DNA from: Bdellovibrionales bacterium
GTDB lineage: Bacteria; Bdellovibrionota; Bdellovibrionia; Bdellovibrionales; UBA1609
NCBI GenBank assembly: GCA_965204055.1
Contig: OZ241967.1
Span: 322,144-386,143 of the forward strand
Direction: 5' to 3'
Length of the DNA: 64,000 nucleotides
The position numbers and the translations under genes were made by a program. This document shows positions 25,531 through 63,801 of this stretch, one piece after another. Below the pieces are notes generated by a model. It saw only the letters and a program-made list of their open reading frames with translations, searched no databases and was not told where the DNA came from. The first letter of the stretch is position 1; each line of letters begins with the position of its first letter.

Positions 25531-25564
25531 AGTGGTATCGTCTCTATTACTAAAGGAACCTCTT

Positions 25565-32113: not shown

Positions 32114-33274
32114 TTACTCTAAAAAAATAGATTTGAGGGCGGTTTTCCAAAATAAACACTCTATCCCCTGGATCCTCTTGTCGGTTTTATCCTGTGACCA
32201 CACTTGAGCTTGGTGGTTTTCCGGCCAGTCTTTTTTTAAACGAGATAATGTTTTAACATGTTTTTCCTGAATACTGTTTGTAGACTTAATTTCCACCAGA
32301 AGATCCGGTTTTCCAGGTCTTTCCATAATCAGATCCACCTCTTGCCCCTCTTTAGTTCTTAAGTGGTAAAAATTAAAGTCTTTTCTGGAGTATTCATTCA
32401 AGTAAAAGCATTCCAATATCATTCTATGCTCAAAGGCGTCTCTATAAGCATGAGTCCTTTCCATAAGCGGGATGTTGACTTGTTTGTCTAAAGCTCTCTT
32501 GACACCTGTATCAAAAAAATAAAACTTAGGAGATAAAACATGCTGTTTGCGAAAAGATCTATGATAAGCAGGAAGGAAAAAACCTAAGAGGGTGTCTTCT
32601 AAAACAGAAAAATAATTTTTAACGGTTTTGCTATCTGCCCTTATATCTCCTGCGATATGGGAATAGTTGACAATTTTTCCGTTTTGTTGGCTTGCCACCC
32701 TAAGAAAATCTCGAAAAGGATTTAATTTCCTGATAATTTGTTCCAAAACAATTTCTTCTTTTAAATAGGTTTGCGTATAGCTTTTTAAAAAATCTATTTT
32801 ATCCTGCTTTGTTTTTTTGTTCAAAGTTTCCGGCAAAGAACCAAACTCTAATATATCGTGGATGCTTGTGTTCGCGCTTAATTCAAAAACGGAAAAAGGG
32901 AATAGATAATAGGAAAAAGCTCGACCAGCCAACAGATTGCCAGAACCTCGTTTTAATTTACGCGCGCTGGAACCTGTTAAAACAAATTGAATATGAGGTT
33001 TTTCGCGCATTAATTTTTGCACAATATCCAACAGCTTAGGCACTTTTTGAATTTCATCAATAACCACCTTTTTATAGTGTTTTTGATTTAAGATCAAAAG
33101 TAATTCATCTGGGTTTTGAGAAAACTTTTCCTCTTCCTCATAAAGCAAAAGATCTATCCACAAAGTATTGGGAGAGCGATACCGGCTTTCTATAAGAGTA
33201 GATTTTCCAGTTCCTCTGGCTCCAAATAGGAAAAAGCTGTTATTTGAGTTAAGTTCAGGCATTCTCTGTATCAT
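32114..33274 (-). CDS. AAA+ ATPase with DUF4143-type C-terminal domain (paralogue B)
   Basis: FLFGARGTGKS, VVIDEIQKVPK, LTGSSARKLKR, C-terminal GQEVDLIMERPGKPDLLVEIKS. Confidence 0.8.
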   Translation of the reverse strand: MIQRMPELNSNNSFFLFGARGTGKSTLIESRYRSPNTLWIDLLLYEEEEKFSQNPDELLLILNQKHYKKVVIDEIQKVPKLLDIVQKLMREKPHIQFVLTGSSARKLKRGSGNLLAGRAFSYYLFPFSVFELSANTSIHDILEFGSLPETLNKKTKQDKIDFLKSYTQTYLKEEIVLEQIIRKLNPFRDFLRVASQQNGKIVNYSHIAGDIRADSKTVKNYFSVLEDTLLGFFLPAYHRSFRKQHVLSPKFYFFDTGVKRALDKQVNIPLMERTHAYRDAFEHRMILECFYLNEYSRKDFNFYHLRTKEGQEVDLIMERPGKPDLLVEIKSTNSIQEKHVKTLSRLKKDWPENHQAQVWSQDKTDKRIQGIECLFWKTALKSIFLE

Positions 33275-35519: not shown

Positions 35520-36704
35520 TTAAAAAAGCTCATTTTTCCAAAGTTTTTTCATAAATAGGGAATAAGGCAAAATCTCTATCCCCTGTGTTTTGTCGTTCTT
35601 GGTAAAGCTTTCTGATTCACTTAAAAGTCGAGGCTGAGGTTCTAAACAAACAACAAATCTTTTTTTTAAAGAAGGATATTCTTTTTGGACCTCTTTCAGT
35701 CCTTTTAAATCATGGGAGACAATCTTTTTTTTGGCTTTGGCTTCAATAGCAGTATCCATATTTCCAATAATAAAATCCACCTCTATTCCGTTACTCAATC
35801 TCCAATAAGAAAAATGACAATTCAACTCTTGATAGCTCAGATAAGCTCTTAGTTCATGGTGAACCCAGTTTTCAAAAGCTTTGCCGAAAAAAGGATTGCC
35901 CGGCTGTAAATCCAATCTCCTGGCGAGATGATTAACAATACCCACATCACAAAAATAAAATTTAGGTATAGATCTGGTTCTTCTTTTAGGCTTTTTCCTG
36001 TAACAAGGTAGAAAGGAACCTATTAAAGTATCTCTAAGAATGTAAAAATAATTTTTTGCTGTAACAGCTGAAATACCGCATTCTCTGGCAATATTTGTAA
36101 AACTCACCGGCTCTGTGTCCGATAGAGCTGATAACTCTAAAAAATCATTAAAGACAGAAAAATTTTGAATAAAGCCCTCGTGTGCAATCTCTTCCCGTAA
36201 ATAATCATCACAGTAACTTTTTAGAGCACGTTTCGGGTTTTTAGTGGCAAAAATTCCAGGGAGATAGCCGTTGTTTAACCTATCATTTAAAGAAAAATCT
36301 GACTTTAATTCTGAAGAAACAAAGCCAAATAGTTCAAAACGATCAGCGCGACCTCCCAATAAATTAATGTGCCCCTGTTTAAGACGTTTCGCACTGGAAC
36401 CACAAAGCCCAAACACTAATTTTTTATTTTCAATAAGCCAATGCACTTCATTCAGCAGTTCCGGTACTTTTTGGATTTCATCAATAATAATAAGAGATTT
36501 TTTAAACTGGGGGGAAGAAAGCTCTTGCCTGAGAAGAGAGGGGGTTTTCTTATATCGCACAAATTTATCTGTGTTCAGCAGATCAATGAAAAAAGCATGG
36601 GGATAAACAACCTTAAGAAGGGAGCTTTTTCCTGTTTGCCGTGCCCCCCATAGAAAAAAACTGCGGGAGGGTTTTTTATCCAAAATCAATTTCCGGGTGT
36701 ACAT
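35520..36704 (-). CDS. AAA+ ATPase with DUF4143-type C-terminal domain (paralogue C)
   Basis: FLWGARQTGKS, IIIDEIQKVPE, LCGSSAKRLKQ, C-terminal GIEVDFIIGNMDTAIEAKA. Confidence 0.8.
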   Translation of the reverse strand: MYTRKLILDKKPSRSFFLWGARQTGKSSLLKVVYPHAFFIDLLNTDKFVRYKKTPSLLRQELSSPQFKKSLIIIDEIQKVPELLNEVHWLIENKKLVFGLCGSSAKRLKQGHINLLGGRADRFELFGFVSSELKSDFSLNDRLNNGYLPGIFATKNPKRALKSYCDDYLREEIAHEGFIQNFSVFNDFLELSALSDTEPVSFTNIARECGISAVTAKNYFYILRDTLIGSFLPCYRKKPKRRTRSIPKFYFCDVGIVNHLARRLDLQPGNPFFGKAFENWVHHELRAYLSYQELNCHFSYWRLSNGIEVDFIIGNMDTAIEAKAKKKIVSHDLKGLKEVQKEYPSLKKRFVVCLEPQPRLLSESESFTKNDKTQGIEILPYSLFMKKLWKNELF

Positions 36705-41860: not shown

Positions 41861-41878
41861 ATTAAAGTGCAGGTAAAG

Positions 41879-43438
41879 ATGAAAAAGAAATATAAAAAAT
41901 CAAAGCTGGAAAAAGAACCTATAGAAAAAAAACTGTGGCGGTCCGCAGATAGCTTGAGAAAAAATATTGATGCCGCTGAATACAAGCATATTGTGCTGGG
42001 GTTAATTTTCCTAAAATATATTTCTGATTCTTTTGAGGCCCTTTACAGTAAACTTAAAAAAGCACGAGGTAAATACGCAAAGGCTGATTTAGAAGATCGG
42101 GACGAATACAAGGCAGAAAATGTTTTTTTTGTGCCTCCTTTAGCTCGTTGGTCTTATTTACGCTCTCGTGCTAAAATGCCAGAAATTGGTCGGGACATTG
42201 ATTCAGCAATGTCTGCCATTGAAAAAGATAACCCTGCATTAAAAAATGTTCTTCCAAAGGTATATGCTAAAGGTAACTTAGATCCGATAAGCCTTGGGAA
42301 ACTTATTGATGAGCTGAGCAATATTGATATGGAGTCTGCTAAAAATCACAGTGCAGATATTTTAGGCCATGTGTTTGAATATTTTTTAGGTCAATTTGGC
42401 CTGGCAGAGGGTAAAAAGGGTGGGCAGTTTTACACCCCTCGCTCTGTTGTAAAACTTTTGGTGGAAATGCTTAAGCCTTACAAGGGTAAGGTGTTTGATC
42501 CTTGCGCAGGAACAGGCGGTATGTTTGTGCAGTCGGAAGAATTTATTAAAGAGCATCAGGGGCGCATTAATGATATTTCCATTTACGGACAGGAGAGCAA
42601 CCAAACCACTTGGCGACTATCTAAGATGAACTTGGCTATTCGTGGGATTGAAAGTTCAAAGGTAAAATGGAACAGTGAAGGTTCTTTTTTGAAAAACGCT
42701 CACCCGGATTTAAAAGCGGATTACATTATTGCTAACCCACCTTTTAACGACAGCAGTTGGGGCCAGGCTTTGCTTAAACAGGATGGACGGTGGAAGTATG
42801 GTTTGCCACCAGAGGGGAATGCTAATTTTGCCTGGATCCAGCATTTTATTCATCATTTAAAACCTCCGGCAGAAAATCAACCAGGTGGTCAAGCGGGCTT
42901 TGTGATGGCTAAAGGTTCTTTAACTTCTAAATCTTCAAACGAAGATAAAATCCGAAAAAACATGGTCGAAGATCATCTTATAGACTGCATTGTAAATTTG
43001 CCTGCAAAACTTTTTTTAAACACTCAAATTCCTGCATCTCTTTGGTTTTTAAGAAGGGGGAAAACTTATCGTCGAGATCAAATTCTTTTTATTGACGCCA
43101 GAAATAAGGGGCGTCTTATCAACCGCCGAAACCGCGTGTTGGACGATGAGGATATTCATAAAATTGCTCATGTATATCGTAGCTGGTTAGCAGAAGGGGA
43201 GAGTCCTTTACTTTACACAGATGAACCAGGTTTTTGTGCTTCTGTTTCTATTCAAAAGATCCGGGAGTTAGATTACATTTTAAGTCCGGGTCGTTATGTA
43301 GGGTTACCGGAGGAAGACGATGACTTTAATTTTGCAGAAAAATTTACAGAATTAAAGGGCCGTTTAGATCAGCAAATGAAGGAGGAGGCAAAATTAAACA
43401 GTCGCATTAAAAAAAACCTCTCTCGCATTGATATATGA
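41879..43438 (+). CDS. hsdM: Type I restriction-modification methyltransferase subunit
   Basis: HsdM N-domain (LWRSADSLRKNIDAAEYKHIVLGLIFLKYISD), GQFYTPRSVVKLLVEML, DPCAGTGGMF, catalytic IIANPPFN. Starts 18 nt after the lysS stop. Confidence 0.9.
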   Translation: MKKKYKKSKLEKEPIEKKLWRSADSLRKNIDAAEYKHIVLGLIFLKYISDSFEALYSKLKKARGKYAKADLEDRDEYKAENVFFVPPLARWSYLRSRAKMPEIGRDIDSAMSAIEKDNPALKNVLPKVYAKGNLDPISLGKLIDELSNIDMESAKNHSADILGHVFEYFLGQFGLAEGKKGGQFYTPRSVVKLLVEMLKPYKGKVFDPCAGTGGMFVQSEEFIKEHQGRINDISIYGQESNQTTWRLSKMNLAIRGIESSKVKWNSEGSFLKNAHPDLKADYIIANPPFNDSSWGQALLKQDGRWKYGLPPEGNANFAWIQHFIHHLKPPAENQPGGQAGFVMAKGSLTSKSSNEDKIRKNMVEDHLIDCIVNLPAKLFLNTQIPASLWFLRRGKTYRRDQILFIDARNKGRLINRRNRVLDDEDIHKIAHVYRSWLAEGESPLLYTDEPGFCASVSIQKIRELDYILSPGRYVGLPEEDDDFNFAEKFTELKGRLDQQMKEEAKLNSRIKKNLSRIDI

Positions 43439-43462
43439 TGTCCCGCTCGGTTTAAAAAACCC

Positions 43463-43491
43463 TTGACTTTTTATACTTAAAAGGATATAAT
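43463..43491 (+). promoter_or_regulatory. Consensus sigma70 promoter (TTGACT-17-TATAAT)
   Basis: -35 at 43463-43468 and -10 at 43486-43491. Followed by a leader of about 165 nt before the 43660 gene. Confidence 0.6.
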
Positions 43492-43659
43492 GTTTACTGT
43501 TTTATTTTGACTCTCAGTGTTATAGAAATAGGATTTCTGTTTTTTTTGAGTATTAGCTATAAAGTGGAAATCCCTTAATCAGACAGCTAAATTTCAAACT
43601 GGTTGGGTTTGATGAAGCTATAAAAGGTAGGGGTTGCAAACCAATAAAAAAATTAAGAG

Positions 43660-44220
43660 GTGGTAATGACTTTAGCCAGTAAAAAATTAAAAGAGCTTAT
43701 TGATGAAGCAACATCTAAAAAATCCGGAGTGGACTGGGATAGGGTTTTAGTGGAATGGAAAAGCCATGTCCACCATTTGTATAAACAAGTTGAAATCTGG
43801 ATAAGAAAGTCAGGTGCGTTTAATAAAATACAATTGGATAAGCGGGAAATAACAATTTCTGAAAACCACATTGGTTCTTATCAAATAGATCAGCTGATAT
43901 GGACAGTAGGTGGTCATATTATCAACTTTATTCCTCAAGGAAGATTGATTATAGGTGCCAAAGGTAGGGTGGACATCATTTGTGGTAGCCGAAAAGCACT
44001 TCTTTTGCTGTTGAGCAAAGATGGGCAACCCTCTATAAAAACCCAGGAGTTTAATACAGAACTTGAATATGAAAAGTACAAAGAGCGCGAAAGCAAAAAG
44101 ATAAAAAAACACAGATCACAAGATCTGGTATGGAAAATCTCAAGGCAAATACCAACAACTGGGGTAAGTCTCTTTACTGAAAATGAATTTACAGAAGTTT
44201 TTGAACAACTGATTGCTTAG
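43660..44220 (+). CDS. Hypothetical protein embedded in the hsd locus (186 aa)
   Basis: ORF with a GAGGTGG RBS. No recognisable motif. Confidence 0.6.
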   Translation: MVMTLASKKLKELIDEATSKKSGVDWDRVLVEWKSHVHHLYKQVEIWIRKSGAFNKIQLDKREITISENHIGSYQIDQLIWTVGGHIINFIPQGRLIIGAKGRVDIICGSRKALLLLLSKDGQPSIKTQEFNTELEYEKYKERESKKIKKHRSQDLVWKISRQIPTTGVSLFTENEFTEVFEQLIA

Positions 44221-44330
44221 GATGAGTGTACTCTGGTTTTAACAACCTTTAGTCACTTTTTATTTCAATACTTTATTTTATAATAACAGGAATACGGTAT
44301 AATTAATTTAAGCAAATGGAATAGGTTGGA

Positions 44331-44882
44331 ATGATAAAAATAAATATATTTTATGATATAAATAGTTGTTATATTCATTCTCGATTAGCTTTAACCCGGC
44401 TTGAGAGAACAATAAAAACGCGCCCTGATGATATAAATGAATTACAGGACTTTTTAGGTATGACTGAAAATGAAGCCAGACAGTATTTTCAAAAATTACA
44501 AGATGAATTGGAAACAGCGTATGTTTTTAAAATTGTGTCTGCTATGGAAGCAGTTTTTAGGCAGGATTTTAATAAACGGGTGAGAAAACGAAAACTAAGC
44601 CAAGAACCAAATAAAAGTTTTAAAAAAATATTTAAAAAAAAAGCCACCCTTAGCAGAGTTCATTTGAAAGAAGATATATTGGAAATATGGAAAAAGAAGG
44701 TGCATGGTGTACATAAACCCACTATTTCCAAATTTTATGAACTTATAAATTATCGCCATTGGATAGCGCATGGGCAATATTGGTTATATCAGCAAAAAAA
44801 ATTTGATATACCATCAACTATAACAATTGTAACAAGTGTATTTAATGAGTGCCGACGTGTAGCACCTGATTTTAGTCATTAA
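44331..44882 (+). CDS. Predicted HEPN-domain protein (RiboL-PSP/Swt1-like)
   Basis: C-terminal Rx4H motif in ELINYRHWIAHGQYW. All-helical look. Located between hsdM and hsdS. Confidence 0.55.
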   Translation: MIKINIFYDINSCYIHSRLALTRLERTIKTRPDDINELQDFLGMTENEARQYFQKLQDELETAYVFKIVSAMEAVFRQDFNKRVRKRKLSQEPNKSFKKIFKKKATLSRVHLKEDILEIWKKKVHGVHKPTISKFYELINYRHWIAHGQYWLYQQKKFDIPSTITIVTSVFNECRRVAPDFSH

Positions 44883-44892
44883 GGAAGAGCAA

Positions 44893-45309
44893 ATGAGCAA
44901 TATCAATTATGAAAAACTAAAAAAATCTCTTGAGAAATTGGAAGAACAATATGAAAATTTTCTCACATTGGATAAAAAAAATATATCCGATCTTGATAAA
45001 GAGGCTATTAAAGAATCTGTTATACATAGGTTTGAAGTTTGCTATGACATTTTTTTTAAAAGTTTGAAAAAATATCTCCAGAAAGAAGGATTAACTGTGG
45101 ACTCAAGTGCCCCAAGAGCTATCCTTCGTAAAGCTAATGAAAGCGGTTTGATAGATCAGGAAACATTAGATAATTGGTTTGCCCATATTGAGTTAAGAAT
45201 AGGAACAGCTCACGACTACAGTTTAGAGAAAGCAGAACAAGCTTTAAGAAAAATAAGTGATTTTATTGAAGATGTGAAAGATATTTACAAAGTGATGTGT
45301 TCTTTATAA
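44893..45309 (+). CDS. HEPN-domain protein, HI0074 family (nucleotidyltransferase substrate-binding protein)
   Basis: ESVIHRFEVCYDIFFKSLKKYL and the Rx4H motif ELRIGTAHDYS. 138 aa. Followed by an MNT domain. Confidence 0.75.
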   Translation: MSNINYEKLKKSLEKLEEQYENFLTLDKKNISDLDKEAIKESVIHRFEVCYDIFFKSLKKYLQKEGLTVDSSAPRAILRKANESGLIDQETLDNWFAHIELRIGTAHDYSLEKAEQALRKISDFIEDVKDIYKVMCSL

Positions 45310-45338
45310 TTTCAAGTACTATTAGGAATAAAAATAAA

Positions 45339-47444
45339 ATGGTTAAAGAGAATTTAATAGATCTGGATAGAAAGCAACTTAAGCTTTTACAGGCAATCAT
45401 TAAAACTTGTATTCCCGGTAAAACAGTTTGGGCTTATGGTTCTCGTGTTTTTTGGAAAGCAAGAGAAAACTCTGATTTGGATTTAGCTGTTTTTGGTTGT
45501 TCTTCCAGGCAAATATATAATTTTAAGGAGGCTTTAGAGGAAAGCAATTTGTTAGTTTCTGTTGATGTAATGGACTGGGAAAGTATACCTGAAAGCTTTA
45601 AAGTCAATATCAAAAAAAAATATGTAGTTTTACAGAAAAGCGAAGATATATTAGACTCACAGGAAAACAATATTGAAATTTCTATTAGCCGGGAGCATGC
45701 AGTTTATGCCAGAGATATAGAAAAATGTTTTGGTGTATTGAATGTAAAAGTCCAGCCTAATTTTTGTCGAAAGTCAATAGACGAGCTTCCGATGAAGATT
45801 ATAATTTTTCTTACAGAAGTAGTTGTTACAGGTGCATTCTGGGAGTTACTAAAGGCAGGAATTAAAAAAGTTTTCAAAAACTTTAATCAAGTTAATATGG
45901 ATATTGATGATAATAGGCCAAATAAGAATCCTAATATAATGCGCTATACAATAGATAGTGATGGAAATGTTTTTGTATATGCGGATTCTTCTGAAAAAAT
46001 AAAAGAATATTCATATATAAAAACCATTGATGATTTATTAGAACATTTGAAAAATCAAGCTTCACAAAGCAAGTCCGCTTCAGGAGGCAAGTCATCTTCT
46101 GGAAACATGTTATCCTCAGGAAGTAAGTTATCTTCAGGGAGCCAGCCATCTTTAAGAAGTTTGTCATTCCCGCGAAGGCGGGAATCCAGTCAAAAAAAAA
46201 TTTTCTCTGGATTGACTGATCAACCTATGTTAAAAGGCTGGCGCAAAGTGAAACTTAAGGAAATAATTAACTTAATAGGAGGAGGTACACCTAAGACTAA
46301 TATACCGGAATATTGGAATGGAAATATTCCATGGCTTTCAGTGACAGATTTTAATACGGGCAGAAAATATGTGTATAGCACTGAAAAATATATTACCAAT
46401 CTTGGGTTACAAAAAAGCAATACAAAAATCCTTAATAAAGATGACATTATTATTTCTGCAAGAGGAACTGTAGGGGTTGTTTCTATGACAGGAAAAGAAA
46501 TGGCCTTTAATCAATCATGTTATGGAATAAGGGCTAAAGATGAATCGTTTAATGAATATATTTACTACTTGTTAAAAAATACCGTAAATCAGCTACAACA
46601 TATTTCTCATGGTGGGGTGTTTGATACAATTACAAGAGATACCTTTAATAAAGTTGAAGTGCCTCTTCCTCCACTTCTTGAGCAAAAAGCGATTGCAGAG
46701 GTCTTGTCCAGTTTGGATGATAAAATTGAACTATTGCATGAGCAAAACAAAACTTTGGAAGAAATAGCTCAAACCCTTTTCCGCAAGTGGTTTATCCAGG
46801 ACGCCAACCCCCATTGGCCACAAAAACCTTTAGATGAATTGCTAAGTACAATCGAGTCTGGTTCACGGCCAAAAGGAGGAATTAATCCAGAGTTAAAACA
46901 AGGGATACCTAATATAGGGGCTGAAAGCATAAATGGTATAGGAAGATTTGACTTTTCAAAAACAAAATATGTAACAGATGAATTTTTTAAAAATATGAAA
47001 AAAGGGGTTGTAAAAGATTATGATGTTCTAATCTATAAAGATGGTGCTTATATTGGCAAAAAAGCAATGTTTGGCAACGGATTTCCTTTTAAGAAAATGG
47101 CTGTCAATGAGCATGTTTTTATTTTAAGAACCAACAGTAAAGCAGATCAATTTTTTCTTTATTTTTCACTGGAACAGAAAAAGTTATCAAAACTAAATGC
47201 TAATTCCGCCCAACCGGGCTTAAATCAAAAATCTATGAAGTCTCTTAAGATCATTATCCCACAAAAAGATATAATAAATAATTTTCAGAATACTGTTAAG
47301 CCGTGGATTGATAAGATACTTTTTAACAGTAATCAAATCAGAAATCTTGCAGATCTTCGCAACACCCTCCTACCCAAGCTAATAACCGGTCAAGTCCGAG
47401 TAACTTTTAAAAATAAAAAAACACAAATAAGTTCATCTTGTTAA
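45339..47444 (+). CDS. hsdS: Minimal nucleotidyltransferase (MNT) domain continuous with a type I specificity subunit (apparent MNT-linker-HsdS fusion)
   Basis: MNT motif GSRVFWKARENSDLDLAVFG...VDVMDW. No stop codon up to TAA 47444. Ser/Gly linker from 6 x 18-bp repeats (46069-46176). HsdS part begins at MLKGWRKVKLKEIINLIGGGTPKT (46227), with central LPPLLEQKAIAEVLSSLDDKIELL and C-terminal LADLRNTLLPKLITGQVRV. Confidence 0.65.
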   Translation: MVKENLIDLDRKQLKLLQAIIKTCIPGKTVWAYGSRVFWKARENSDLDLAVFGCSSRQIYNFKEALEESNLLVSVDVMDWESIPESFKVNIKKKYVVLQKSEDILDSQENNIEISISREHAVYARDIEKCFGVLNVKVQPNFCRKSIDELPMKIIIFLTEVVVTGAFWELLKAGIKKVFKNFNQVNMDIDDNRPNKNPNIMRYTIDSDGNVFVYADSSEKIKEYSYIKTIDDLLEHLKNQASQSKSASGGKSSSGNMLSSGSKLSSGSQPSLRSLSFPRRRESSQKKIFSGLTDQPMLKGWRKVKLKEIINLIGGGTPKTNIPEYWNGNIPWLSVTDFNTGRKYVYSTEKYITNLGLQKSNTKILNKDDIIISARGTVGVVSMTGKEMAFNQSCYGIRAKDESFNEYIYYLLKNTVNQLQHISHGGVFDTITRDTFNKVEVPLPPLLEQKAIAEVLSSLDDKIELLHEQNKTLEEIAQTLFRKWFIQDANPHWPQKPLDELLSTIESGSRPKGGINPELKQGIPNIGAESINGIGRFDFSKTKYVTDEFFKNMKKGVVKDYDVLIYKDGAYIGKKAMFGNGFPFKKMAVNEHVFILRTNSKADQFFLYFSLEQKKLSKLNANSAQPGLNQKSMKSLKIIIPQKDIINNFQNTVKPWIDKILFNSNQIRNLADLRNTLLPKLITGQVRVTFKNKKTQISSSC

Positions 47445-49009: not shown

Positions 49010-49555
49010 GCTTATATGTGTAATACACTACTTCCCCCCCTGTCAACCTATTTGTTTTAATCAGATTCAGATTCAAATTCAGAAATTATAAACCAGATTC
49101 CCGATTTCACAGGAATGATAATCTCAATTTTATATGATTATAAGGTATTCCTGACTTCCGCATTTTAGAGATGGTTTGAGAAAGGTCCAGTAAAAAAAAG
49201 CTTATCATTCCATTGAGTTATATTTTTTTAAAATCAGGACAAAATGTAGTGGCCATTGTAGTGGACAAGCCCTCTTAATGCTCTTATAACGAACCCATGT
49301 TTGTTAGAGCTGTCAAAAAAAATAATGACCACCGTTACAATATGCGACATTTGTTTTTTGTCCCGCGCGCGTCTTCTGTCCGTGGTGTGTTTAAAGCCTT
49401 TTTGTGGGGCTTTATTTGCAAAATAAAGATGGGCAACCTCAAAAAAACTACTTTTTTTTAATCAATTTTCTAAAGTTTTCTCTCACTAAGCCGATAAGTG
49501 ATGTATGAAAGTATAGTTCCTTAATACATACTAAAGAGAAACAAGGAGTGAAAAA

Positions 49556-51370
49556 GTGAGAAAAAACCCATTTTACCCCCCCCCCCCCCCGCACCGCGTC
49601 ATTCTTAGGGTTCTTAAGAGGGCCTTGTTTAACAAAAAAGGCATTGGACTAATGGAAACCCTGATGGTTAGTGCTTTAGGCTTAACCATCAGCTATGGCG
49701 TTTTTAAAGTGAATGAAGTTTCTATGTACACCGCAAAGGTAGTCAATAGTAATTTGGATCAGAAGGATTTAAGAGGCACTATTTATAAAACTTTAGGTAA
49801 TAAAGAGGCTTGCGTTCATAACTTAAAGAAGCCGGCCAGCTCTTCCCCAAAAACTTCTATAACTTCTTTACAGGCCAAGAGTGGGGCAAATTGGATTAAC
49901 TTAATTAACAGTCAAGCAAATCAAAACCTATTTAAAAATAGTTTAAGAATCCAGAAATTTGAATTTAAAAATAGCAAAGATTTTATTATTCATTACAGCA
50001 AAGAGGGTTTAGGTAGGCACGAGACTTTGGCCAAGTCAGATGGGACAAAGGGAGTTTGCACTAAAACAGACACCACAGATTGTTACTCCGTAGAGTGTAA
50101 AATAGATTTTTCCTGTAGTAATAATGATTGTGATGGGTCTGGTGATAGGTGCTCACTTTTAGATTGCACAGGCGGGGCAGAAGGGGGCGGTGGTGCAAAC
50201 TGCTATCAAGTGGATAACACAGGGCCAGATAAAGCTAAAACCCTTATTGGTTGTGGTGGAGCGCACAAAGCCAAAGGAGAAAAGGTCACTGTTTTAGGTT
50301 TTGGCGCGGGTAAAGTTAACGAGGGCGATAATAACACTTTTTTAGGAGCTTATGCGGGATATAGAAACACCAGTGGGGACCGTAATGTTTTTGTAGGGGA
50401 AGTGGCCGGGAAGGTTAACACCAAAGGGAAACAAAACACTTTTATAGGTGTTGCCAGTGGGCATAAAAACCTCACTGGGGCTTATAATACTTTTGTAGGG
50501 ACATGGGCCGGGGCAAGCAATGTCACAGGGACAGATAACACCTTTATTGGACAAGATGCGGGCAGACACAACACGTCAAATTTTAACACTTTTGTTGGAA
50601 AAAAAGCTGGCCTTAACAATGCGGGTGGGGGGGGTAATACTTTTATAGGAGAAAGGGCAGGAGAGAGTAACAATTCTGGTTACCACAACACTTTTATTGG
50701 TTCTGGTGCAGGTTTAACCCATAAAACAGGGCACGATAACATTGTTATAGGGAGACATGTAAAGCTTGATTCAGCCACTGGTAGTAACCAGATTAACATT
50801 GGTAACATAATAAAGGCTGGTTCAGGTTTCTTACAAATATGCGATAGCACCGGAAATAACTGCTTAAAAATAAGTAAAGCAGGGCTTAAATGTGATGAGA
50901 ATCATTACTTTAGAGGGATAGATAATGACGGCAATCCTATGTGTCATTCTTTACATACAGTAAGATTTTCTGGTCATTGTGGGGGAAATCAATATCTTTA
51001 TGGAATATCAAGCTCTAATAGGCCGATGTGCAGAAATCTCCCCTCTGGTGGTGGTGGTGGCACACCCGGACCAGCCGGGCCACGCGGACCAGCCGGACCA
51101 GCCGGACCACAAGGACCACAAGGACCTCCTGGTGAAGCAGGAACAACCGCTGAATTAAAACGGAAAGTTTTAGGAAATACCAGTTGTCCAAGTGGACAAA
51201 TATTTCAAAACAGGTTTGATGCTAATGGAAATATGGTATGTATAACAAGAGCGCAAAAATGTAGTAATGATGGTGGTAGATGGTGTATGAGAAGAAATAG
51301 ATGTCTTTATTGCTCGCCTTGGGAAATTACGGATATGAGTGAGTGTAGATGTTTTGATAATAGTAGATAG
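49556..51370 (+). CDS. Prepilin-leader protein with tail-fibre-like repeats, collagen run and Cys-rich C-terminus
   Basis: AAGGAG RBS 7 nt before GTG 49556. Leader ...ALFNKKG|IGLMETLMVSALGLTISYGVF, with Glu at +5. About 9.5 x 17-aa NTF(I/V)GxxAGxxNxxG units (50333-50810). GTPGPAGPRGPAGPAGPQGPQGPPGEAG. Confidence 0.8.
   Translation: MRKNPFYPPPPPHRVILRVLKRALFNKKGIGLMETLMVSALGLTISYGVFKVNEVSMYTAKVVNSNLDQKDLRGTIYKTLGNKEACVHNLKKPASSSPKTSITSLQAKSGANWINLINSQANQNLFKNSLRIQKFEFKNSKDFIIHYSKEGLGRHETLAKSDGTKGVCTKTDTTDCYSVECKIDFSCSNNDCDGSGDRCSLLDCTGGAEGGGGANCYQVDNTGPDKAKTLIGCGGAHKAKGEKVTVLGFGAGKVNEGDNNTFLGAYAGYRNTSGDRNVFVGEVAGKVNTKGKQNTFIGVASGHKNLTGAYNTFVGTWAGASNVTGTDNTFIGQDAGRHNTSNFNTFVGKKAGLNNAGGGGNTFIGERAGESNNSGYHNTFIGSGAGLTHKTGHDNIVIGRHVKLDSATGSNQINIGNIIKAGSGFLQICDSTGNNCLKISKAGLKCDENHYFRGIDNDGNPMCHSLHTVRFSGHCGGNQYLYGISSSNRPMCRNLPSGGGGGTPGPAGPRGPAGPAGPQGPQGPPGEAGTTAELKRKVLGNTSCPSGQIFQNRFDANGNMVCITRAQKCSNDGGRWCMRRNRCLYCSPWEITDMSECRCFDNSR
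49576..49590 (+). repeat. Poly-C tract (15 nt) inside the 5' end of the ORF
   Basis: Fifteen consecutive C at 49576-49590, encoding YPPPPP 20 nt after the start codon. A G8 run lies at 50627-50634 in the same gene. Confidence 0.95.
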
Positions 51371-51534
51371 AAAATAAGATTTAAGCTTTGCTTTCCAGCT
51401 TTTCAATGCGCTTTTCCAGTTTTTCTATATAATCCAAACGATTGTCCAATATTTTTTCAATCGTTTTAAACTCTTCAGCATGCAACAATGATCTTGGACT
51501 TGGGATTGTGGCTGTGGCGGGGGTCCAGGTAATC

Positions 51535-51650
51535 AAAACGGAAATACTTATTGTCCTTAGCATACTGGGGATAGTCGGCGGGATAGCGACTATTTCATAT
51601 AAAGGTTATAATTTAAGTGTTCAAAAGAAAGATTTAAAACTATCAGGGGA
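51535..51650 (+). pseudogene. Type IV pilin N-terminal helix fragment, truncated by IS fragment
   Basis: VIKTEILIVLSILGIVGGIATISYKGY aligns with the pilin consensus FTLIELLIVIAIIGILAAIAIPQY, but lacks a proper Gly-1 and leader. It abuts IS-derived sequence at about 51651. Confidence 0.4.
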
Positions 51651-52126
51651 GCCGGCCCTTTCTGATGTGCAAAGTTTAACAGGAGTTTGTTTAAAGCGAG
51701 TGTTTGTAGATAAAGGCTATAGGGGGGAGAAGCATCATCCTGAAGGATTGGAGGTTAATGTAAGCGGTCAGAGACCATCACCCAGTCGTTATCATCGCCG
51801 TTTGGCACGTCGAAGGAACAGTGTAGAGGCAGTGATAGGTCATTTGAAGGGGGATTGTCGTATGGAGAGGAATTTTTTACATGGTGAGCTGGGTGATGGA
51901 GTGAATGCTTTACTTTCTGGAAGTGGATACAATATAAGGAGATTGATAAGAGAAGTAAATGGGTTGCCTTCTTTTTTTGTTCTTTTTATCAAGAGGTTTT
52001 TTACTATGTTATTTTGTTTTTCGGCAAAGCCTTAAGTGGTGAGGGTCCAAGCGTTATCGTCCCGAACAAGCTTAAGGTTTTGCAGACCACAGCTTAAACT
52101 TAAAAGAGGTTTTTTCACGACCGATT
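51651..52126 (+). mobile_element. 3' fragment of the IS5-family element (last ~125 codons of the transposase + right end)
   Basis: Near-identical to 59505-60005 (PALSDVQSLTGVCLKRVFVDKGYRG...), with a small internal deletion. Ends ...GGTTTTTTCACGACCGATT. Confidence 0.85.
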
Positions 52127-56067: not shown

Positions 56068-56997
56068 TTAAAAAAAACCTCTCTCTAATGCCTTTTTTTC
56101 ATTAATATTTTGTAAGGCTATCATATTGCGAATGTGTGTTACGATCTTCATAATTACCTCGGAATTTATAGGGTGTGCTTTTATTTGCTCTATATAAGTG
56201 TTCCTATATTTTTTTCTCCCTAATGTGGTGTTAAAGTGTTCTCGTATATTAGCCGATATTCTTTTTGCTTTTCTTAAAATTAAAACTAAATCGATATCTG
56301 TAACAGAAGTGTCAATGGGTGGCATATCTAGCCATTCACAAACTAAAAAGTATTTAGATCCTATTACCATCTTTTTTAAATCTGTAGCTGTAGAGAGTGC
56401 TTCCTGAAACATTGTTTTGTCAAGATTAGTTTTGCATTCCGTCGCAATAAAGCTCAAATGTGTTTTAATCTCAGATGAATCGGAGTAGTCAGAATTGTGT
56501 GACACTTTTAAAAATAATTTTTTAGATATTGAAAAATCTTGATCTTTTTCTTTGGCATATAAACTCGCCCCAGTATAAATACCAGAGATATTTGATTTAA
56601 ACTGTAAATTGGAAAGAGATTTAATGGGGCCTATTATCACTTGTTTTTGATCAAAATTTCCAATAATGGACGGATGAACTAATCTTGGTAAAAATTCCTC
56701 TATTACACTGCTACCCAGTTTCATTTGACCTTTTTGGCGATATAGAAAATCATTTTTTGAATCATAAATAAGATCAACATCTATATTATTTTTATATTTA
56801 TTAAGAGCTTCAACGAGCAGATAAATTTTTTCATATACGGTGATTTTTTTTATATTGTAAATTGTTTCAATTTCAGATATCCATTTTTTATACAGTGTAC
56901 AAGCTTTTTTTAAACGTTGTACTTCAGTTGAGGGCACTTTTTTATTTTTTATTGTTGCTATTAATTTGTCTTTATGGGTAGTGGGGTATTTAATCAT
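56068..56997 (-). CDS. Putative type II restriction endonuclease
   Basis: 309-aa ORF 26 nt downstream of a DNA methyltransferase gene. Weak PD-(D/E)xK candidate (DQDF ... IATECKT). No other family motif recognised. Confidence 0.5.
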   Translation of the reverse strand: MIKYPTTHKDKLIATIKNKKVPSTEVQRLKKACTLYKKWISEIETIYNIKKITVYEKIYLLVEALNKYKNNIDVDLIYDSKNDFLYRQKGQMKLGSSVIEEFLPRLVHPSIIGNFDQKQVIIGPIKSLSNLQFKSNISGIYTGASLYAKEKDQDFSISKKLFLKVSHNSDYSDSSEIKTHLSFIATECKTNLDKTMFQEALSTATDLKKMVIGSKYFLVCEWLDMPPIDTSVTDIDLVLILRKAKRISANIREHFNTTLGRKKYRNTYIEQIKAHPINSEVIMKIVTHIRNMIALQNINEKKALERGFF

Positions 56998-57023
56998 TGT
57001 TTATCCTTTTTATAGCATAAAAA

Positions 57024-58271
57024 TTATAGTATAAAAAACGGTTCTTGTAAAAATTCTTTTGGCCTCTGATATATAGGGGAACAGTTTATTAGATCGATTG
57101 ATTTAATGGCATCAGATAGAAATTTTTGTTCTTCTTTAGGCACACGATTGTTTGCTTCTATTAATGTGTAATAAGCAATTTGTCTGGGATCAATATTGTA
57201 TTTTAAAGACGTAGTTGGATTCTCAATTATTAATATATCTTCTTTTATTGATTTACCATAGCGATTTTTAAAACATCTTTCGTGTCGACATTTAATATTA
57301 AAGCTGAATACCTGTTTAGCAATGTTGGAGATAATTTCGCTATTAAAAAAAATGGTTTTTTTTATAGTGGATTCACGGCCAACTATAAAAATTAATTTAG
57401 CTTTAGGCTTGCAAACTCTACCTAATTCATACATTACCATTGCCATGTCTAAACAGTATTGTATGACTGTAAGATATCTGTTATTTCTGTGTTTTCGGTT
57501 TGATCCTATTTCAGATTTTGCAATTGATAAAATATTCCATCCCATTGCTTCTATAGAAGCTCTTTTTTGTTGATGATAATTAAATACATTAATGTATGGT
57601 GGAGATGTGATTACTAGATCAATAGAATTTTTTTCAAGTGGTATTTTCCGACAATCACTATTGAATATTCTGATCTCAGTTTTAGTATAAGGTAGATTAA
57701 TAATCAAAAGTTTTAATTTATGCCAAATATGTCGAGCTTTTTTTGTAGTTAATTGGTTTTCTTTAGGATCAATTAGAACCAGATAAGTTTCCAGGACTAA
57801 TAAGGCTTCTGGGGTCTTTATATCATCAATCACTTTTTTCAGTTTAGAAAACAGATCAAACGAGTTTGTGTCAGAAGTATGGAATGATTTATTAAATAAA
57901 GGCATGTCTTCAAAGATAATTAAGTTAATTTTGTTTTCAATATTCATAATGTATTTTTTTCTGTTTTCTACGGTAATACGAGTGAGAAGATAAATTTGAG
58001 CTATTTTTATAGCCGCAGGGTTTAGTTCAATACCTATTGCATTTAACTTCATTAGAACAGCTTCATATAAAACTGTGCCACTTCCCATAAAAGGATCTAA
58101 TATTCTATCAGTTTTATAAGAGTAAGTTTCTAATAAAAACTGTATTAGTTGGGGTGAAAACTGGCCTTTCCAAGGTAAGAAGTTAGTTCTTTCCTTGTTT
58201 ACTATATCCAGTTTTTCTTGAGAAATAGTTATATTATCACAGTTTATTGTTTTTAGTTTAATTGTTTCCAT
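57024..58271 (-). CDS. DNA amino-methyltransferase (N4-C or N6-A), motif order I then IV
   Basis: AdoMet motif ILDPFMGSGTVLYEA and catalytic LVITSPPYINVFNY. Confidence 0.75.
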   Translation of the reverse strand: METIKLKTINCDNITISQEKLDIVNKERTNFLPWKGQFSPQLIQFLLETYSYKTDRILDPFMGSGTVLYEAVLMKLNAIGIELNPAAIKIAQIYLLTRITVENRKKYIMNIENKINLIIFEDMPLFNKSFHTSDTNSFDLFSKLKKVIDDIKTPEALLVLETYLVLIDPKENQLTTKKARHIWHKLKLLIINLPYTKTEIRIFNSDCRKIPLEKNSIDLVITSPPYINVFNYHQQKRASIEAMGWNILSIAKSEIGSNRKHRNNRYLTVIQYCLDMAMVMYELGRVCKPKAKLIFIVGRESTIKKTIFFNSEIISNIAKQVFSFNIKCRHERCFKNRYGKSIKEDILIIENPTTSLKYNIDPRQIAYYTLIEANNRVPKEEQKFLSDAIKSIDLINCSPIYQRPKEFLQEPFFIL

Positions 58272-61770: not shown

Positions 61771-62895
61771 GTGAGTCAGGATAATCAGGGTAGTGTTTTT
61801 GAGTCTGCCATTAAAAACTTTTTATCCCCTATATGGGGTCTTCTTAAGGATGAAAGTGTGACAGAGGTAATGATTAACCGGCACGATGAAATCTGGGTTG
61901 AAAAAGCTGGAAAGGTGCATAAATCAGACGCTCATTTTCCTGATGAGGATTCTGTGCGTGCGGCGGCTAATAATATAGCTCAAAGTGTAGGCCGGAGAAT
62001 TGATGACAAAAATCCCCGTTTAGATGCTCGTCTCCCTAATGGTTATCGTATTCATGCTGTTATTCCCCCTTGTGCCAGAAAGGGAACCACTATAGCTATT
62101 CGTAAATTTTCCACCACGCAGTTTACTTTTGAGGATTATATTCGTTTTGGCACAATGACCCTGGATGTGGCTCGTTTTTTAGATATTTGTATGAAGCTTG
62201 GGAAAAATGTTTTGGTTAGTGGAGGCACGGGTTCTGGAAAAACTACTTTGCTTTCCGTTTTGTGCAACCGGATCCCTAAAGGGCAAAGAATTATCGTGAT
62301 AGAGGATTCCAGTGAATTGCAAATAGAATACGAGCATGTTGTGTTTTTTGAAACCCGCATGGCCAATGAAATAGGAGAAGGGGAAGTGAATATTCAAGAT
62401 CTGTTAAAAAGCTCTCTTCGTTTAAGACCGGACAGGATTATTGTGGGGGAAGTGCGAGGTGGTGAGGCTTTAGAATTAGTGCAGGCTATGAACACTGGGC
62501 ACAAAGGATGTCTGGGAACTGTGCATGCTAATTCCCCGCATGATGCCATTGTTCGGCTGGAGGCTTTGGCTCAGGGGGCGGACTCGCAACTGAGTGAAAA
62601 AGCTTTGCAACACCAAATCAGCTCTGCCATAGATGTTATTGTGCAGATCTCTCGATACCCAGATGGTTCCCGCCGTATTGGATCTGTTGCGGAGGTTTTA
62701 GGGGTGAATGACAAAGGAGTGTATCAGGTAAGAGCTATGTACTCTTTAGATCGTTTGGTAAAACAAGCTGATGGCCGTTATGCTGGTGTTATTCAACCTA
62801 CGGGGGAAGAACCCAGCTTTATGAAAGAAATAATAGATCATCAGTTTAATTTTCCAAGAGAAAAATTTAAAAAACAGCTTCGCAAAGCCAGCTAA
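61771..62895 (+). CDS. CpaF/TadA-VirB11-type secretion ATPase
   Basis: Walker A SGGTGSGKTT, Walker B IIVIEDSSEL, RPDRIIVGEVRGGEA, TGHKGCLGTVHANS. Confidence 0.8.
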   Translation: MSQDNQGSVFESAIKNFLSPIWGLLKDESVTEVMINRHDEIWVEKAGKVHKSDAHFPDEDSVRAAANNIAQSVGRRIDDKNPRLDARLPNGYRIHAVIPPCARKGTTIAIRKFSTTQFTFEDYIRFGTMTLDVARFLDICMKLGKNVLVSGGTGSGKTTLLSVLCNRIPKGQRIIVIEDSSELQIEYEHVVFFETRMANEIGEGEVNIQDLLKSSLRLRPDRIIVGEVRGGEALELVQAMNTGHKGCLGTVHANSPHDAIVRLEALAQGADSQLSEKALQHQISSAIDVIVQISRYPDGSRRIGSVAEVLGVNDKGVYQVRAMYSLDRLVKQADGRYAGVIQPTGEEPSFMKEIIDHQFNFPREKFKKQLRKAS

Positions 62896-63102: not shown

Positions 63103-63801
63103 GTGGTTTTTATGTTATCTGACTTTTGTAGAAGAATACATAATACTGTTTCGTATTTTAGACCTTTGTTTGTGGTGTTTTTTTTATCAGCTTCTATTTG
63201 TGTAAGTTGTTGGACAGACCCTTCTTCTGAAAGTAGCTTGATAAATGCTGATTCCGTAAGTGCCTCTATAGACGCTGATTCTAATAAAGAAAAATATTAT
63301 TTTTTTTGTGACTATTGGGGTGTGCCTTTAATAGATAAAACTAATCATTCCCACACTACTTTTGACCGGGTTTTTTCTTATGAAAAATTTCCTGTTGGTT
63401 TTAAAGCTGATTTTAAAGAGTCCACTTTGCAACCCGTTAAAGAAAAGCAGAAATTTTTATATACTTCTTTTTCTGCTGGACAAGTTTGTGCTGAATGCGC
63501 TCATTGGAAAGTTTTTAATGTCTATCGGTTTAATAGGGAAACTGGGACCCTTACCCACTCTTTTGTTTATTATACCCCGAAAGAAGATTATGAAAACAAA
63601 CTTACAGAGCAGAAAAACAATCCGTATGCTATTCCTTATAGCCAAGGGCCTTTGGAATTTATAGAAAGGGATAAATCCACACCAGCAAATTATGTCCAAT
63701 TTGGTTTTGACAAAAGTGAATGGCGTTGTCAGGAAATATCTCTCCTTAGATACCAATGGAAACGGATCATTTTAGGGATATTACGCTCTCTTGCTATATA
63801 A
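63103..63801 (+). CDS. Hypothetical exported protein
   Basis: 232-aa ORF with a hydrophobic N-terminus (FRPLFVVFFLSASICVSC, lipobox-like). Confidence 0.5.
   Translation: MVFMLSDFCRRIHNTVSYFRPLFVVFFLSASICVSCWTDPSSESSLINADSVSASIDADSNKEKYYFFCDYWGVPLIDKTNHSHTTFDRVFSYEKFPVGFKADFKESTLQPVKEKQKFLYTSFSAGQVCAECAHWKVFNVYRFNRETGTLTHSFVYYTPKEDYENKLTEQKNNPYAIPYSQGPLEFIERDKSTPANYVQFGFDKSEWRCQEISLLRYQWKRIILGILRSLAI

Follow-up and report, generated by a model that had tools for sequence, protein, structure and literature searches.

What kind of protein begins like a pilin, continues like the tail fibre of a phage, and carries a run of five prolines, encoded by a long run of cytosines, in its leader? The question is raised by a gene of a Bdellovibrionales bacterium, found in a stretch of 64,000 nucleotides of contig OZ241967.1 (assembly GCA_965204055.1, positions 322,144 to 386,143). 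This whole stretch is called the window here, and its first letter is position 1. An earlier note, made from the sequence alone, divided the 604-residue product into six elements: a class III (prepilin-type) signal, a Cys-rich pilin-like region, tandem 17-residue units, three disulfide modules, a run of Gly-X-Y triplets, and a Cys-rich C-terminal knob. All six were found again by script. We propose that the protein is a phase-variable, trimeric pilus-tip adhesin, that is, a modular minor pilin bearing a stalk like that of a tail fibre and a Cys-rich tip that varies. On balance we hold this to be probable, with much room left for doubt. The main interest of the gene lies in the fusion of a pilin with a fibre in a relative of Bdellovibrio, together with a candidate homopolymer switch that is family-wide and with the mosaicism of the cassettes.

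The prepilin-type N-terminus and its family

Direct reading of the sequence places the start of the gene at a GTG, with an AAGGAG Shine-Dalgarno (SD) sequence 7 nt before it (Table 1). The sequence at the predicted cleavage site is ...NKKG/IGLMETLMVSALGLTISYGVF, where the slash marks the cut, and Glu is at +5. The database gene call, P0001, is 572 residues long and begins at Met33, within the pilin helix; thus, the signal is missing from the database entry. Scans of the 604-residue protein with Pfam and NCBIfam gave no match whatever. No lipobox Cys or Ala-X-Ala-type site is seen after the hydrophobic stretch on direct reading of the protein sequence.

The family to which the protein belongs was revealed when a profile was searched exhaustively against 1.84 billion cluster representatives: 282 clusters match at E<1e-10, and 123 of these at E<1e-30. 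A Cys-rich N-domain of about 205 residues is common to the family clusters. A word-indexed search with the N-domain profile gave just five fragments, all from a subfamily lacking Glu5. In an alignment of 37 relatives that spans the whole N-domain, Gly-1 never varies and Glu+5 is kept in at least 90%; Pfam N_methyl (PF07963) matches 24 of the 37 (best 6e-7), and TIGR02532 matches 19. Gly-1, Glu+5, and seven Cys are invariant in alignment A1 (12 relatives, all with Glu+5), and four Cys are invariant across all 14 sequences of alignment A3. The invariance of Cys residues, Gly-1, and Glu+5 is a sign of purifying selection. The class III motif lies inside the called ORF in 112 of 161 family proteins, with Glu at +5 in 99 and Gly or Ser in 13. 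The signals of relatives, which align with the window protein over its N-terminal 230 residues, include KG/FSLIEIL, RG/IGLIETL, and KG/FSLLELL, the last from a protein with a precomputed Pfam N_methyl match.

Against the PDB, the family profile has ten matches at E<=1, all of them type IV pilins whose alignment begins at mature residue 1 and follows α1. Geobacter PilA-N, TcpA, PilE1, and CofA are among these, and Geobacter PilA-N alone (5e-4) is below 1e-3. An AlphaFold2 (AF2) model of the N-domain, built from the 37-sequence alignment, has a helix at residues 32–81 followed by six strands, with a predicted local distance difference test score (pLDDT) of 85 and a predicted template modelling score (pTM) of 0.75. 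We read the N-terminus as a prepilin-type signal followed by a pilin α1 helix, on the basis of homology and not of the window sequence's own score. Since Gly-1, Glu+5, and the hydrophobic helix are conserved, prepilin peptidase is predicted to cut after Gly29, and the helix is predicted to anchor the protein in the membrane.

The family is invisible to Pfam and NCBIfam, and gene callers routinely clip the signal by starting after the poly-C tract described below. Pattern scans for the N-domain (alignment A2 and two short peptide patterns, for which a miss is weak evidence) gave nothing in GTDB representative genomes, IMG/VR, or JGI metagenome contigs.

A tail-fibre-like stalk and variable tips

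Behind the N-domain, nine regular units of 17 residues match the expression N-[TVI]-[FV]-[ILV]-G at residues 260–411. Degenerate units flank them, and the whole repeat region extends over about residues 243–420. The earlier note took the repeats to be of the phage tail-fibre kind, and the comparisons agree. With E values from 6e-16 to 2e-11, the PHROG families matched are those of tail-spike and virion proteins. By tblastn, the matches (33–40% identity) are phage proteins annotated as tail-fibre, tail structural, endosialidase, or virion proteins. The AF2 monomer of the repeats is a β-solenoid with a strand every 17 residues (pLDDT 79, pTM 0.82). This stalk model matches predicted viral structures in BFVD (best E 1.2e-6, TMq 0.78), one of them a phage protein named for an intramolecular chaperone auto-processing domain. 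The repeats match, besides, more than 1500 proteins of the database. No homologue is found among PDB sequences with the repeat profile, and Foldseek of the stalk model against the PDB gives nothing significant.

The Cys modules and the collagen-like run listed in the earlier note are also present, the three modules at residues 446–463, 475–492, and 544–562 and the ten perfect Gly-X-Y triplets at residues 502–531. Disulfide bonds would be expected within the Cys modules. Tail-fibre families are matched by the collagen run in PHROGs; phmmer against the PDB gives weak collagen matches that are noise only, and the Pfam Collagen model is not reported. Part of the collagen run is encoded by a 9-nt DNA tandem repeat at 51063–51126 (CCGGACCAG and variants), and paralog P0002, which lies on the same contig, has six collagen triplets versus ten in the window copy. 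Given the repeat and this difference, the collagen run probably changes in length by in-frame slippage. The Cys-rich tip of the window copy is common to P0002 alone.

What follows the N-domain varies across the 161 family proteins. Tail-fibre repeats are present in 71 and Cys modules of the form C..Y(F/L).G(F/I)...C in 65, while 45 have long Cys-rich arrays without fibre repeats. A Peptidase_S74 motif with a coiled coil stands at the end of 25, always together with repeats, and a collagen run occurs in just four. The Peptidase_S74 domain, with its Ser-Lys dyad, is absent from the window protein, which has its collagen run where some relatives end in the S74 trimer-folding chaperone. The collagen run here and the S74 chaperones in relatives suggest that the C-terminal part forms a homotrimer.

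Table 1. Coordinates of the gene, its parts, and associated features. Positions are those of the window unless a locus is named.
Feature	Position	Strand	Remarks
Upstream block	49488..49548	+	-10-like TATAGT, then Shine-Dalgarno AAGGAG at 49543-49548
ORF	49556..51370	+	604 aa; 24 Cys in total; start codon GTG 49556
Leader	49556..49642	+	GTG and basic 29-aa peptide MRKNPFYPPPPPHRVILRVLKRALFNKKG; aa 1-29, ends ...NKKG; last residue Gly-1
Poly-C tract, C15	49576..49590	+	codons 8-12 (PPPPP), in leader coding region; ON frame here
Mature N-terminus	49643..49711	+	IGLMETLMVSALGLTISYGVFKV; hydrophobic α1-N segment, Glu at +5
Pilin-like N-domain	49643..50257	+	aa 30-234, 10 Cys; long α1 helix, then Cys-rich β-sheet head ending CY.VD...KTLIGCG
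Tandem 17-aa repeats, about 10 units	50282..50815	+	NTF(I/V/L)GxxAGxxNTxGxx; predicted β-solenoid stalk
Cys-bounded modules	50840..51031	+	C429-C436; C446-C463 = CDENHYFRGIDNDGNPMC; C475-C492 = CGGNQYLYGISSSNRPMC
Collagen-like run	51059..51148	+	ten Gly-X-Y triplets, GTPGPAGPRGPAGPAGPQGPQGPPGEAGTT, aa 502-531
Third Cys module and C-terminal tip	51185..51370	+	C544-C562, then tip aa 563-604 with six Cys, stop codon
Companion pilin relic	51538..51642	+	105 nt, both ends lost; 92% nt identity to L052 pilin gene, 86% to L051
IS5-family transposase, C-terminal fragment	51655..52035	+	NCBIfam transpos_IS5_1, E 1.6e-22, profile positions 316-418/419; cuts pilin relic
T2SSE-family ATPase	61771-62895	+	374 aa; about 10 kb 3' of family gene; nearest TadA/CpaF/VirB11 (TIGR03819, 321 bits, below cutoff)
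Rpn-like genes in related loci	L001 13035-14051; L002 13193-14167; L051 6783-8012; L055 1200-2303 and 3834-5243		

A poly-C tract in the leader

The C15 tract of the window gene is the sole run of nine or more G or C in the 64 kb. Comparison with seven related loci (L001, L002, and L051 to L055) shows that a poly-C tract of C10 to C21 is common to all eight loci examined; it stands either just within the family gene as called or upstream of it. The lengths are C15 in the window, C12 in L051, C14 in L052, C10 in L053, C21 in L054, C16 in L055, C15 in L001, and C19 in L002; two further paralogs, in L001 and L002, have C15 and C20. The existence and the conservation of the tract are not in doubt.

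Where the tract lies relative to the start of translation was worked out from its flanks. In an alignment of four orthologous loci, the DNA from GCCGATAAG to the SD is almost invariant, and the SD and the start codon 5′ of the tract are conserved. The -10-like box is TATAAT or CATAAT in relatives. The upstream block may act as a promoter; a consensus promoter scan did not call its -10-like element. The leader residues 3′ of the tract are kept from locus to locus, and between the tract and Gly-1 the loci share no conserved start codon. Because it lies 3′ of the conserved -10-like box, SD, and start codon, the tract is placed within a translated leader, and a position in a promoter spacer, in the style of Bordetella fim, is ruled out. 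A start giving a short leader, the TTG at -6 (MFNKKG/), was rejected, since its SD spacing would be 2–3 nt and neither L052 nor L053 keeps the codon. In nine database ORFs, the frame passes from the poly-Pro stretch straight into the pilin motif. Open leaders of as many as 184 residues in an AT-rich genome argue that the leaders are translated.

The length of the tract sets the frame. The upstream start is in frame in the window and in the second L002 paralog, and in L051 it is so through an alternative GTG. It is out of frame in L052, L053, L054, and L055, that is, in four of the six loci in which the frame was followed base by base, and apparently also in the first L002 gene (hand count). 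This state of the frames explains why database calls start within the pilin helix (METLMV..., MGLIEIL...). The differences in length between loci suggest that the tract is a candidate slipped-strand phase-variation switch.

Two further observations concern the DNA around and beyond the tract. The motif GCACYGCGTCAT stands at 49591-49603, directly 3′ of the poly-C, and is conserved in six of the eight loci (the window, L051, L052, L053, L054, and L002). Two different frames run through it (PHRVI versus APRH or ALRHKW), which places its conservation at the DNA level. A search of JGI metagenome contigs for the DNA pattern of the poly-C cassette gave none. Farther downstream, the called ORF stops at a T10 tract, where the peptide is GFFFG, in L051 (~5200-5330), in L055 (~7480-7600), and in paralogs P0003 and P0004; beyond it, the +2 frame runs on for 210–450 residues with Cys-rich repeats. 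The break is either a second homopolymer switch or the result of systematic under-calling of homopolymers.

Mosaic paralogs

The 2.31-Mb contig that holds the window gene also holds four paralogs, P0002 to P0005, with 52–88% identity; in the family, each genome has two to five dispersed paralogs, each with a pilin-type N-terminus. The paralogs in the window's genome are recombinant mosaics. P0003 equals P0002 over alignment columns 1–160 and P0001 over columns 161–400, and then has a P0004-like tail.

Rpn-like PD-(D/E)XK genes (Pfam Transposase_31 or PDDEXK_2) adjoin family genes in four of the seven related loci (Table 1), and none is found in the window. These genes might help to shuffle the mosaic paralogs.

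Gene context and the link to pili

The neighbourhood of the family gene was compared between loci. A prepilin-type gene lies directly 3′ of it in L051, L052, and L053, and the L053 copy overlaps the stop codon of the family gene. The intact homologue of this companion pilin begins MKNKKG/YTLxEIL... and scores above the cutoff of TIGR02532. L001 has a similar pilin gene 2.3 kb upstream of the family gene. In the window, the companion pilin is a relic that shares one ORF, 51442-52035, with an IS5 fragment (Table 1).

Other parts of a pilus or secretion apparatus are scattered. A prepilin-peptidase-like gene of the Peptidase_A24 family (L054 7381-7863, minus strand, 160 residues) lies about 850 nt from the family gene of L054, beside dnaA; none is found within the window. 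The L054 peptidase gene itself holds a run of 10 C, which is poly-G on the coding strand. A secretion ATPase gene stands 1.2 kb 3′ of the family gene in L055. The ATPase at 61771 of the window was considered as PilT, and this was ruled out, the nearest NCBIfam family being TadA/VirB11; the ORF that follows it, 63103-63801, has no family match. The earlier note had proposed looking for pil, tad, or gsp genes near homologues. The pilin gene 3′ in three loci and the Peptidase_A24 gene beside the L054 gene speak for a link to pili; no pil, tad, or gsp operon surrounds the family gene in the window or in related loci.

The gene is chromosomal and not in a prophage. The window is an ordinary Gram-negative chromosome segment with TonB-receptor, ExbB, murC, murG, fadB, lysS, nusB, TolC-like, and amidohydrolase genes, and several systems of the restriction-modification and toxin-antitoxin types lie there too. 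Its 64 kb contain no phage genes for structural proteins, packaging, or lysis. The LysRS of the window is 86% identical to that of a metagenome-assembled genome (MAG) labelled Bdellovibrionales, and the following best loci, about 25 of them, also come from Bdellovibrionales or Pseudobdellovibrionaceae MAGs; the host is thus an uncultured member of the order, with a genome of about 2.3 Mb that is low in GC.

Comparison with known systems

Pilus and fimbrial genes are known that vary in phase through a homopolymer. In Neisseria pilC, a poly-G tract lies in the signal-peptide coding region, and its length sets the reading frame; in Bordetella fim, phase variation occurs through a poly-C homopolymer. 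The present genes resemble pilC in having a G/C homopolymer in the leader coding region, at the 5′ end of what is proposed to be a pilus-associated adhesin gene. They differ from both systems in protein family and phylum, in the presence of a tract at every paralog examined, and in its length (10–21 nt), and switching is here suggested by the lengths.

Minor pilins that trimerise at a filament tip offer the closest functional parallel. TcpB of the toxin-coregulated pilus (TCP) in Vibrio cholerae is described as a CofB-like trimeric tip minor pilin of type IVb pili, and CofB and TcpB retain Glu5 and have long leaders. CofB, of the CFA/III pilus of enterotoxigenic Escherichia coli (ETEC), has a pilin N-domain and β-rich C-terminal domains that homotrimerise, and it has been proposed to form the tip complex, the first part of the pilus to assemble, which starts the assembly and is responsible for adhesion (PMC6048534). 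The window protein is like CofB in its pilin-type N-terminus and C-terminal extension, and it may share the trimer and the tip location. Unlike in CofB and TcpB, its C-terminal modules are tail-fibre repeats, collagen, and Cys modules (S74 in relatives) instead of a β-repeat and an H-type lectin domain; moreover, its gene lies outside a pilus operon and has many paralogs with poly-C tracts. Neither CofB nor TcpB was matched in the PDB sequence searches or by Foldseek, and the major pilins TcpA and CofA were matched over α1 only.

Fusions of a pilin with a trimerising module have also been catalogued. A 2021 survey of modular pilins lists 29 N_methyl-Peptidase_S74 proteins (IPR012902-IPR030392) and seven more with YadA-head repeats in between (PMC8179133). 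The survey took the S74 domain to be a peptidase, and the S74 pilins were only catalogued, with none characterised (PMC8179133). The catalogued architecture is that of the S74-bearing relatives found here. In general plan, a functional module grafted on a pilin module, the window protein also resembles modular pilins such as PilB and PilC of S. sanguinis. It differs from the N_methyl-S74 pilins in having collagen and Cys modules, no S74, and no N_methyl match of its own. The earlier note had called the placing of trimerisation modules on a pilin-type helix an arrangement not known from characterised pilins; with CofB as a precedent (PMC6048534) and the N_methyl-S74 proteins already catalogued (PMC8179133), its anatomy was largely right and its novelty overstated. 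We suggest that the N_methyl-S74 "peptidase" pilins in databases be reinterpreted as trimeric fibre pilins.

Within the same order, Bdellovibrio bacteriovorus has 21 mosaic adhesive trimer (MAT) fibres, whose N-domain is constant and has no PDB homologue and whose tips are S74 or non-S74 (PMC10769870, Caulton et al. 2024). MAT fibres are surface and vesicle proteins with a phage-like β-helical fibre, swapped tips, and many paralogs, and they have been shown to recognise prey; how they are anchored was left open, and the authors raise a possible interplay with type IV pili (PMC10769870). The family described here is like the MAT fibres in its Bdellovibrionales host, constant N-domain, phage-like fibre, S74 or alternative tips, and many paralogs. 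By description, the MATs differ in having a signal peptide and a β-rich domain of about 130 residues (PMC10769870), whereas the present proteins have a class III signal, a pilin helix of about 50 residues, and a Cys-rich head. The window family has a poly-C tract as a candidate switch, and none is reported for MATs.

The likeness to phage fibres is in the stalk and tips. Phage fibres with a C-terminal chaperone, such as the K1F endosialidase and the T5 L-shaped fibre, share the type of repeat, by sequence and predicted structure, and relatives share the S74 SxxxxKKNI motif. The PHROG matches of the collagen run extend the likeness to collagen-containing phage tail fibres. Unlike those fibres, the protein is the product of a cellular chromosomal gene and has a pilin N-terminus in place of a virion-attachment domain. 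Literature searches gave no description of the present N-domain family or of its tracts of poly-C, nor of tail fibres fused to a pilin in Bdellovibrionota.

A proposed mechanism

Type IV pili are reported to be necessary for Bdellovibrio predation, and it is tempting to fit the protein into such a filament. Translation would proceed from the GTG through the C15 tract, which in the window is in frame with the pilin domain, and replication slippage would toggle the protein on and off. Prepilin peptidase would cut after Gly29, leaving the protein anchored in the inner membrane by its hydrophobic α1-N helix. The C-terminal part would then trimerise, the collagen run setting the register in this copy and an auto-cleaving S74 intramolecular chaperone serving relatives. 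By analogy with CofB and TcpB, the trimer would provide the first-assembled subunits at the tip of a type IV filament, with the tip domain binding a surface, probably that of prey cells. Prey as the target is plausible for the order Bdellovibrionales. The paralogs, each presumably with its own poly-C tract, swap segments by recombination, as their mosaic sequences show, and with several such recombining copies, the choice of the fibre displayed could vary. The pilin-fused fibre provides a concrete, testable model of fibre display at the pilus tip. To our knowledge, the poly-C tracts and mosaic paralogs would be the first hint of contingency-locus variation of prey- or host-recognition proteins in the phylum, and the literature searches also found none.

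A bolder proposal, possible but in our estimate rather doubtful, is that in small-genome Bdellovibrionales, a homotrimeric fibre of phage type, mounted on a pilin, caps a type IV filament and makes it a retractable grappling hook. Several poly-C-gated cassettes, with an unusually long translated leader, would be reshuffled, possibly with the help of the Rpn-like PD-(D/E)XK genes, to give a programmable prey or host range. If true, this would also suggest how MAT fibres of the Bdellovibrio type could be anchored and would link them physically to type IV pili.

Weighing the alternatives

A number of points weigh against a pilus-tip adhesin. At E<=1, the window protein itself matches neither N_methyl (PF07963) nor TIGR02532, and its residues +1 to +4, IGLM, differ from the usual F-T-L-I. 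Leaders in the family, from 29 to more than 100 residues, exceed those of characterised prepilins. When the N-domain model was compared by Foldseek with the PDB, pilins included, nothing significant came up (best E 0.17), and the head can thus not be shown to have a known pilin fold; the N-domain also has no Pfam model. The AF2 monomer of the stalk is a self-contained, single-chain solenoid. As to context, no complete pil, tad, or gsp operon adjoins the family gene in the window or in related loci, the nearby ATPase of the window is TadA/VirB11-like and not PilB or PilT, and the companion pilin of the window is destroyed, so that the locus may be decaying. Finally, contig names such as contig_37 and ctg22163_58x_c point to long-read assemblies, in which tract lengths would be unreliable to 1–2 nt, and relatives show a suspiciously uniform -1 error at the T tract. 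Homopolymers in such presumed long-read assemblies, together with the uniform -1 break at T10, make individual ON/OFF calls unreliable.

One alternative is a protein that uses its class III N-terminus purely as an inner-membrane anchor or export signal and displays its fibre on the surface or on vesicles, outside any pilus. Export could be by a piston like that of the type II secretion system (T2SS), or the protein could be a secreted substrate that depends on a pilus. Besides the missing operon, the 45 of 161 family members without fibre repeats and the 13 with Gly or Ser at +5 favour this explanation, and the MAT fibres are surface or vesicle proteins with the same overall logic (PMC10769870). 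Yet most members keep Glu+5 and an α1 helix of about 50 residues, features needed for filament packing beyond anchoring. A pilin gene is also immediately 3′ of the family gene in three loci, overlapping its stop codon in one, and MATs are described with a signal peptide and a β-rich domain but no pilin helix (PMC10769870). We consider an anchor without a pilus unlikely, though it deserves serious attention. That the gene is a decaying or silent contingency gene in a region ridden with insertion sequences, with poly-C length differences that are sequencing artefacts, is in our view improbable. The 105-nt pilin remnant abutting the IS5 fragment, the several relatives and paralogs that are frame-broken at T10, the four of six loci out of frame at the poly-C, and the proneness of the presumed long-read assemblies to homopolymer miscalls would all be explained. 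However, the ORF runs unbroken for 604 codons, in frame with a start that follows a strong SD; tract and flanks alike are kept in all eight loci across genomes, which is not expected of mere decay; and the family bears the mark of purifying selection in its invariant Cys, Gly-1, and Glu+5.

The remaining two explanations dispense with the pilin or with the cell. An ordinary Sec-secreted or lipoprotein adhesin, in which the prepilin resemblance is accidental, would account for the failure of the window protein to match N_methyl or TIGR02532 and for a database call that starts within the hydrophobic stretch. It is very improbable given that Gly-1 is invariant, and Glu+5 nearly so, across a deep family in which 24 of 37 relatives match N_methyl, that the PDB matches are exclusively pilins, and that neither a lipobox Cys nor an Ala-X-Ala-type site is present. 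The preference of the earlier note for a class III signal over a Sec or lipoprotein signal is upheld by the same conservation, by the N_methyl and TIGR02532 matches of relatives, by the pilin-only PDB matches, and by the downstream pilin gene in three loci. A prophage or phage-derived tail fibre gene, whose product would be part of a virion or a tailocin, we find hardly credible. The repeats and the collagen run do match tail-fibre and tailspike PHROGs and annotated phage proteins, but the 64 kb are devoid of phage structural, packaging, and lysis genes, the neighbours are lysS, a type I restriction-modification system, nusB, and an amidohydrolase gene, and two to five dispersed paralogs per genome carry a pilin-type N-terminus. 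The earlier note had allowed that homologues might always lie in prophage tail modules; no prophage context is seen, and the N-domain patterns are not found in the IMG/VR scan. A pilus-tip adhesin is the explanation that we retain.

Other features of the window

A type I restriction-modification locus occupies 41867-47444 on the plus strand, with hsdM at 41867-43438 and an hsdS-like gene at 45297-47444. The N-terminus of the hsdS-like product is a Pol-beta-type nucleotidyltransferase (NTase) domain, and a HEPN/NTase-substrate-binding pair (44331-45309) lies between hsdM and the hsdS-like gene.

Three paralogous ATPase genes of the AAA_14 + DUF4143 type lie within 11 kb, at 25532-26716 (+), 32114-33274 (-), and 35520-36704 (-). 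Among them are a Dam-like methylase gene (27896-29011) and an AAA_15/AAA_21 ATPase gene (29688-31193). The region may be a defence island. At 56068-58271, on the minus strand, a Bpu10I-type restriction endonuclease gene (56068-56997) adjoins a DNA methylase gene (57024-58271), and this segment has the lowest GC content of the window, 29%.

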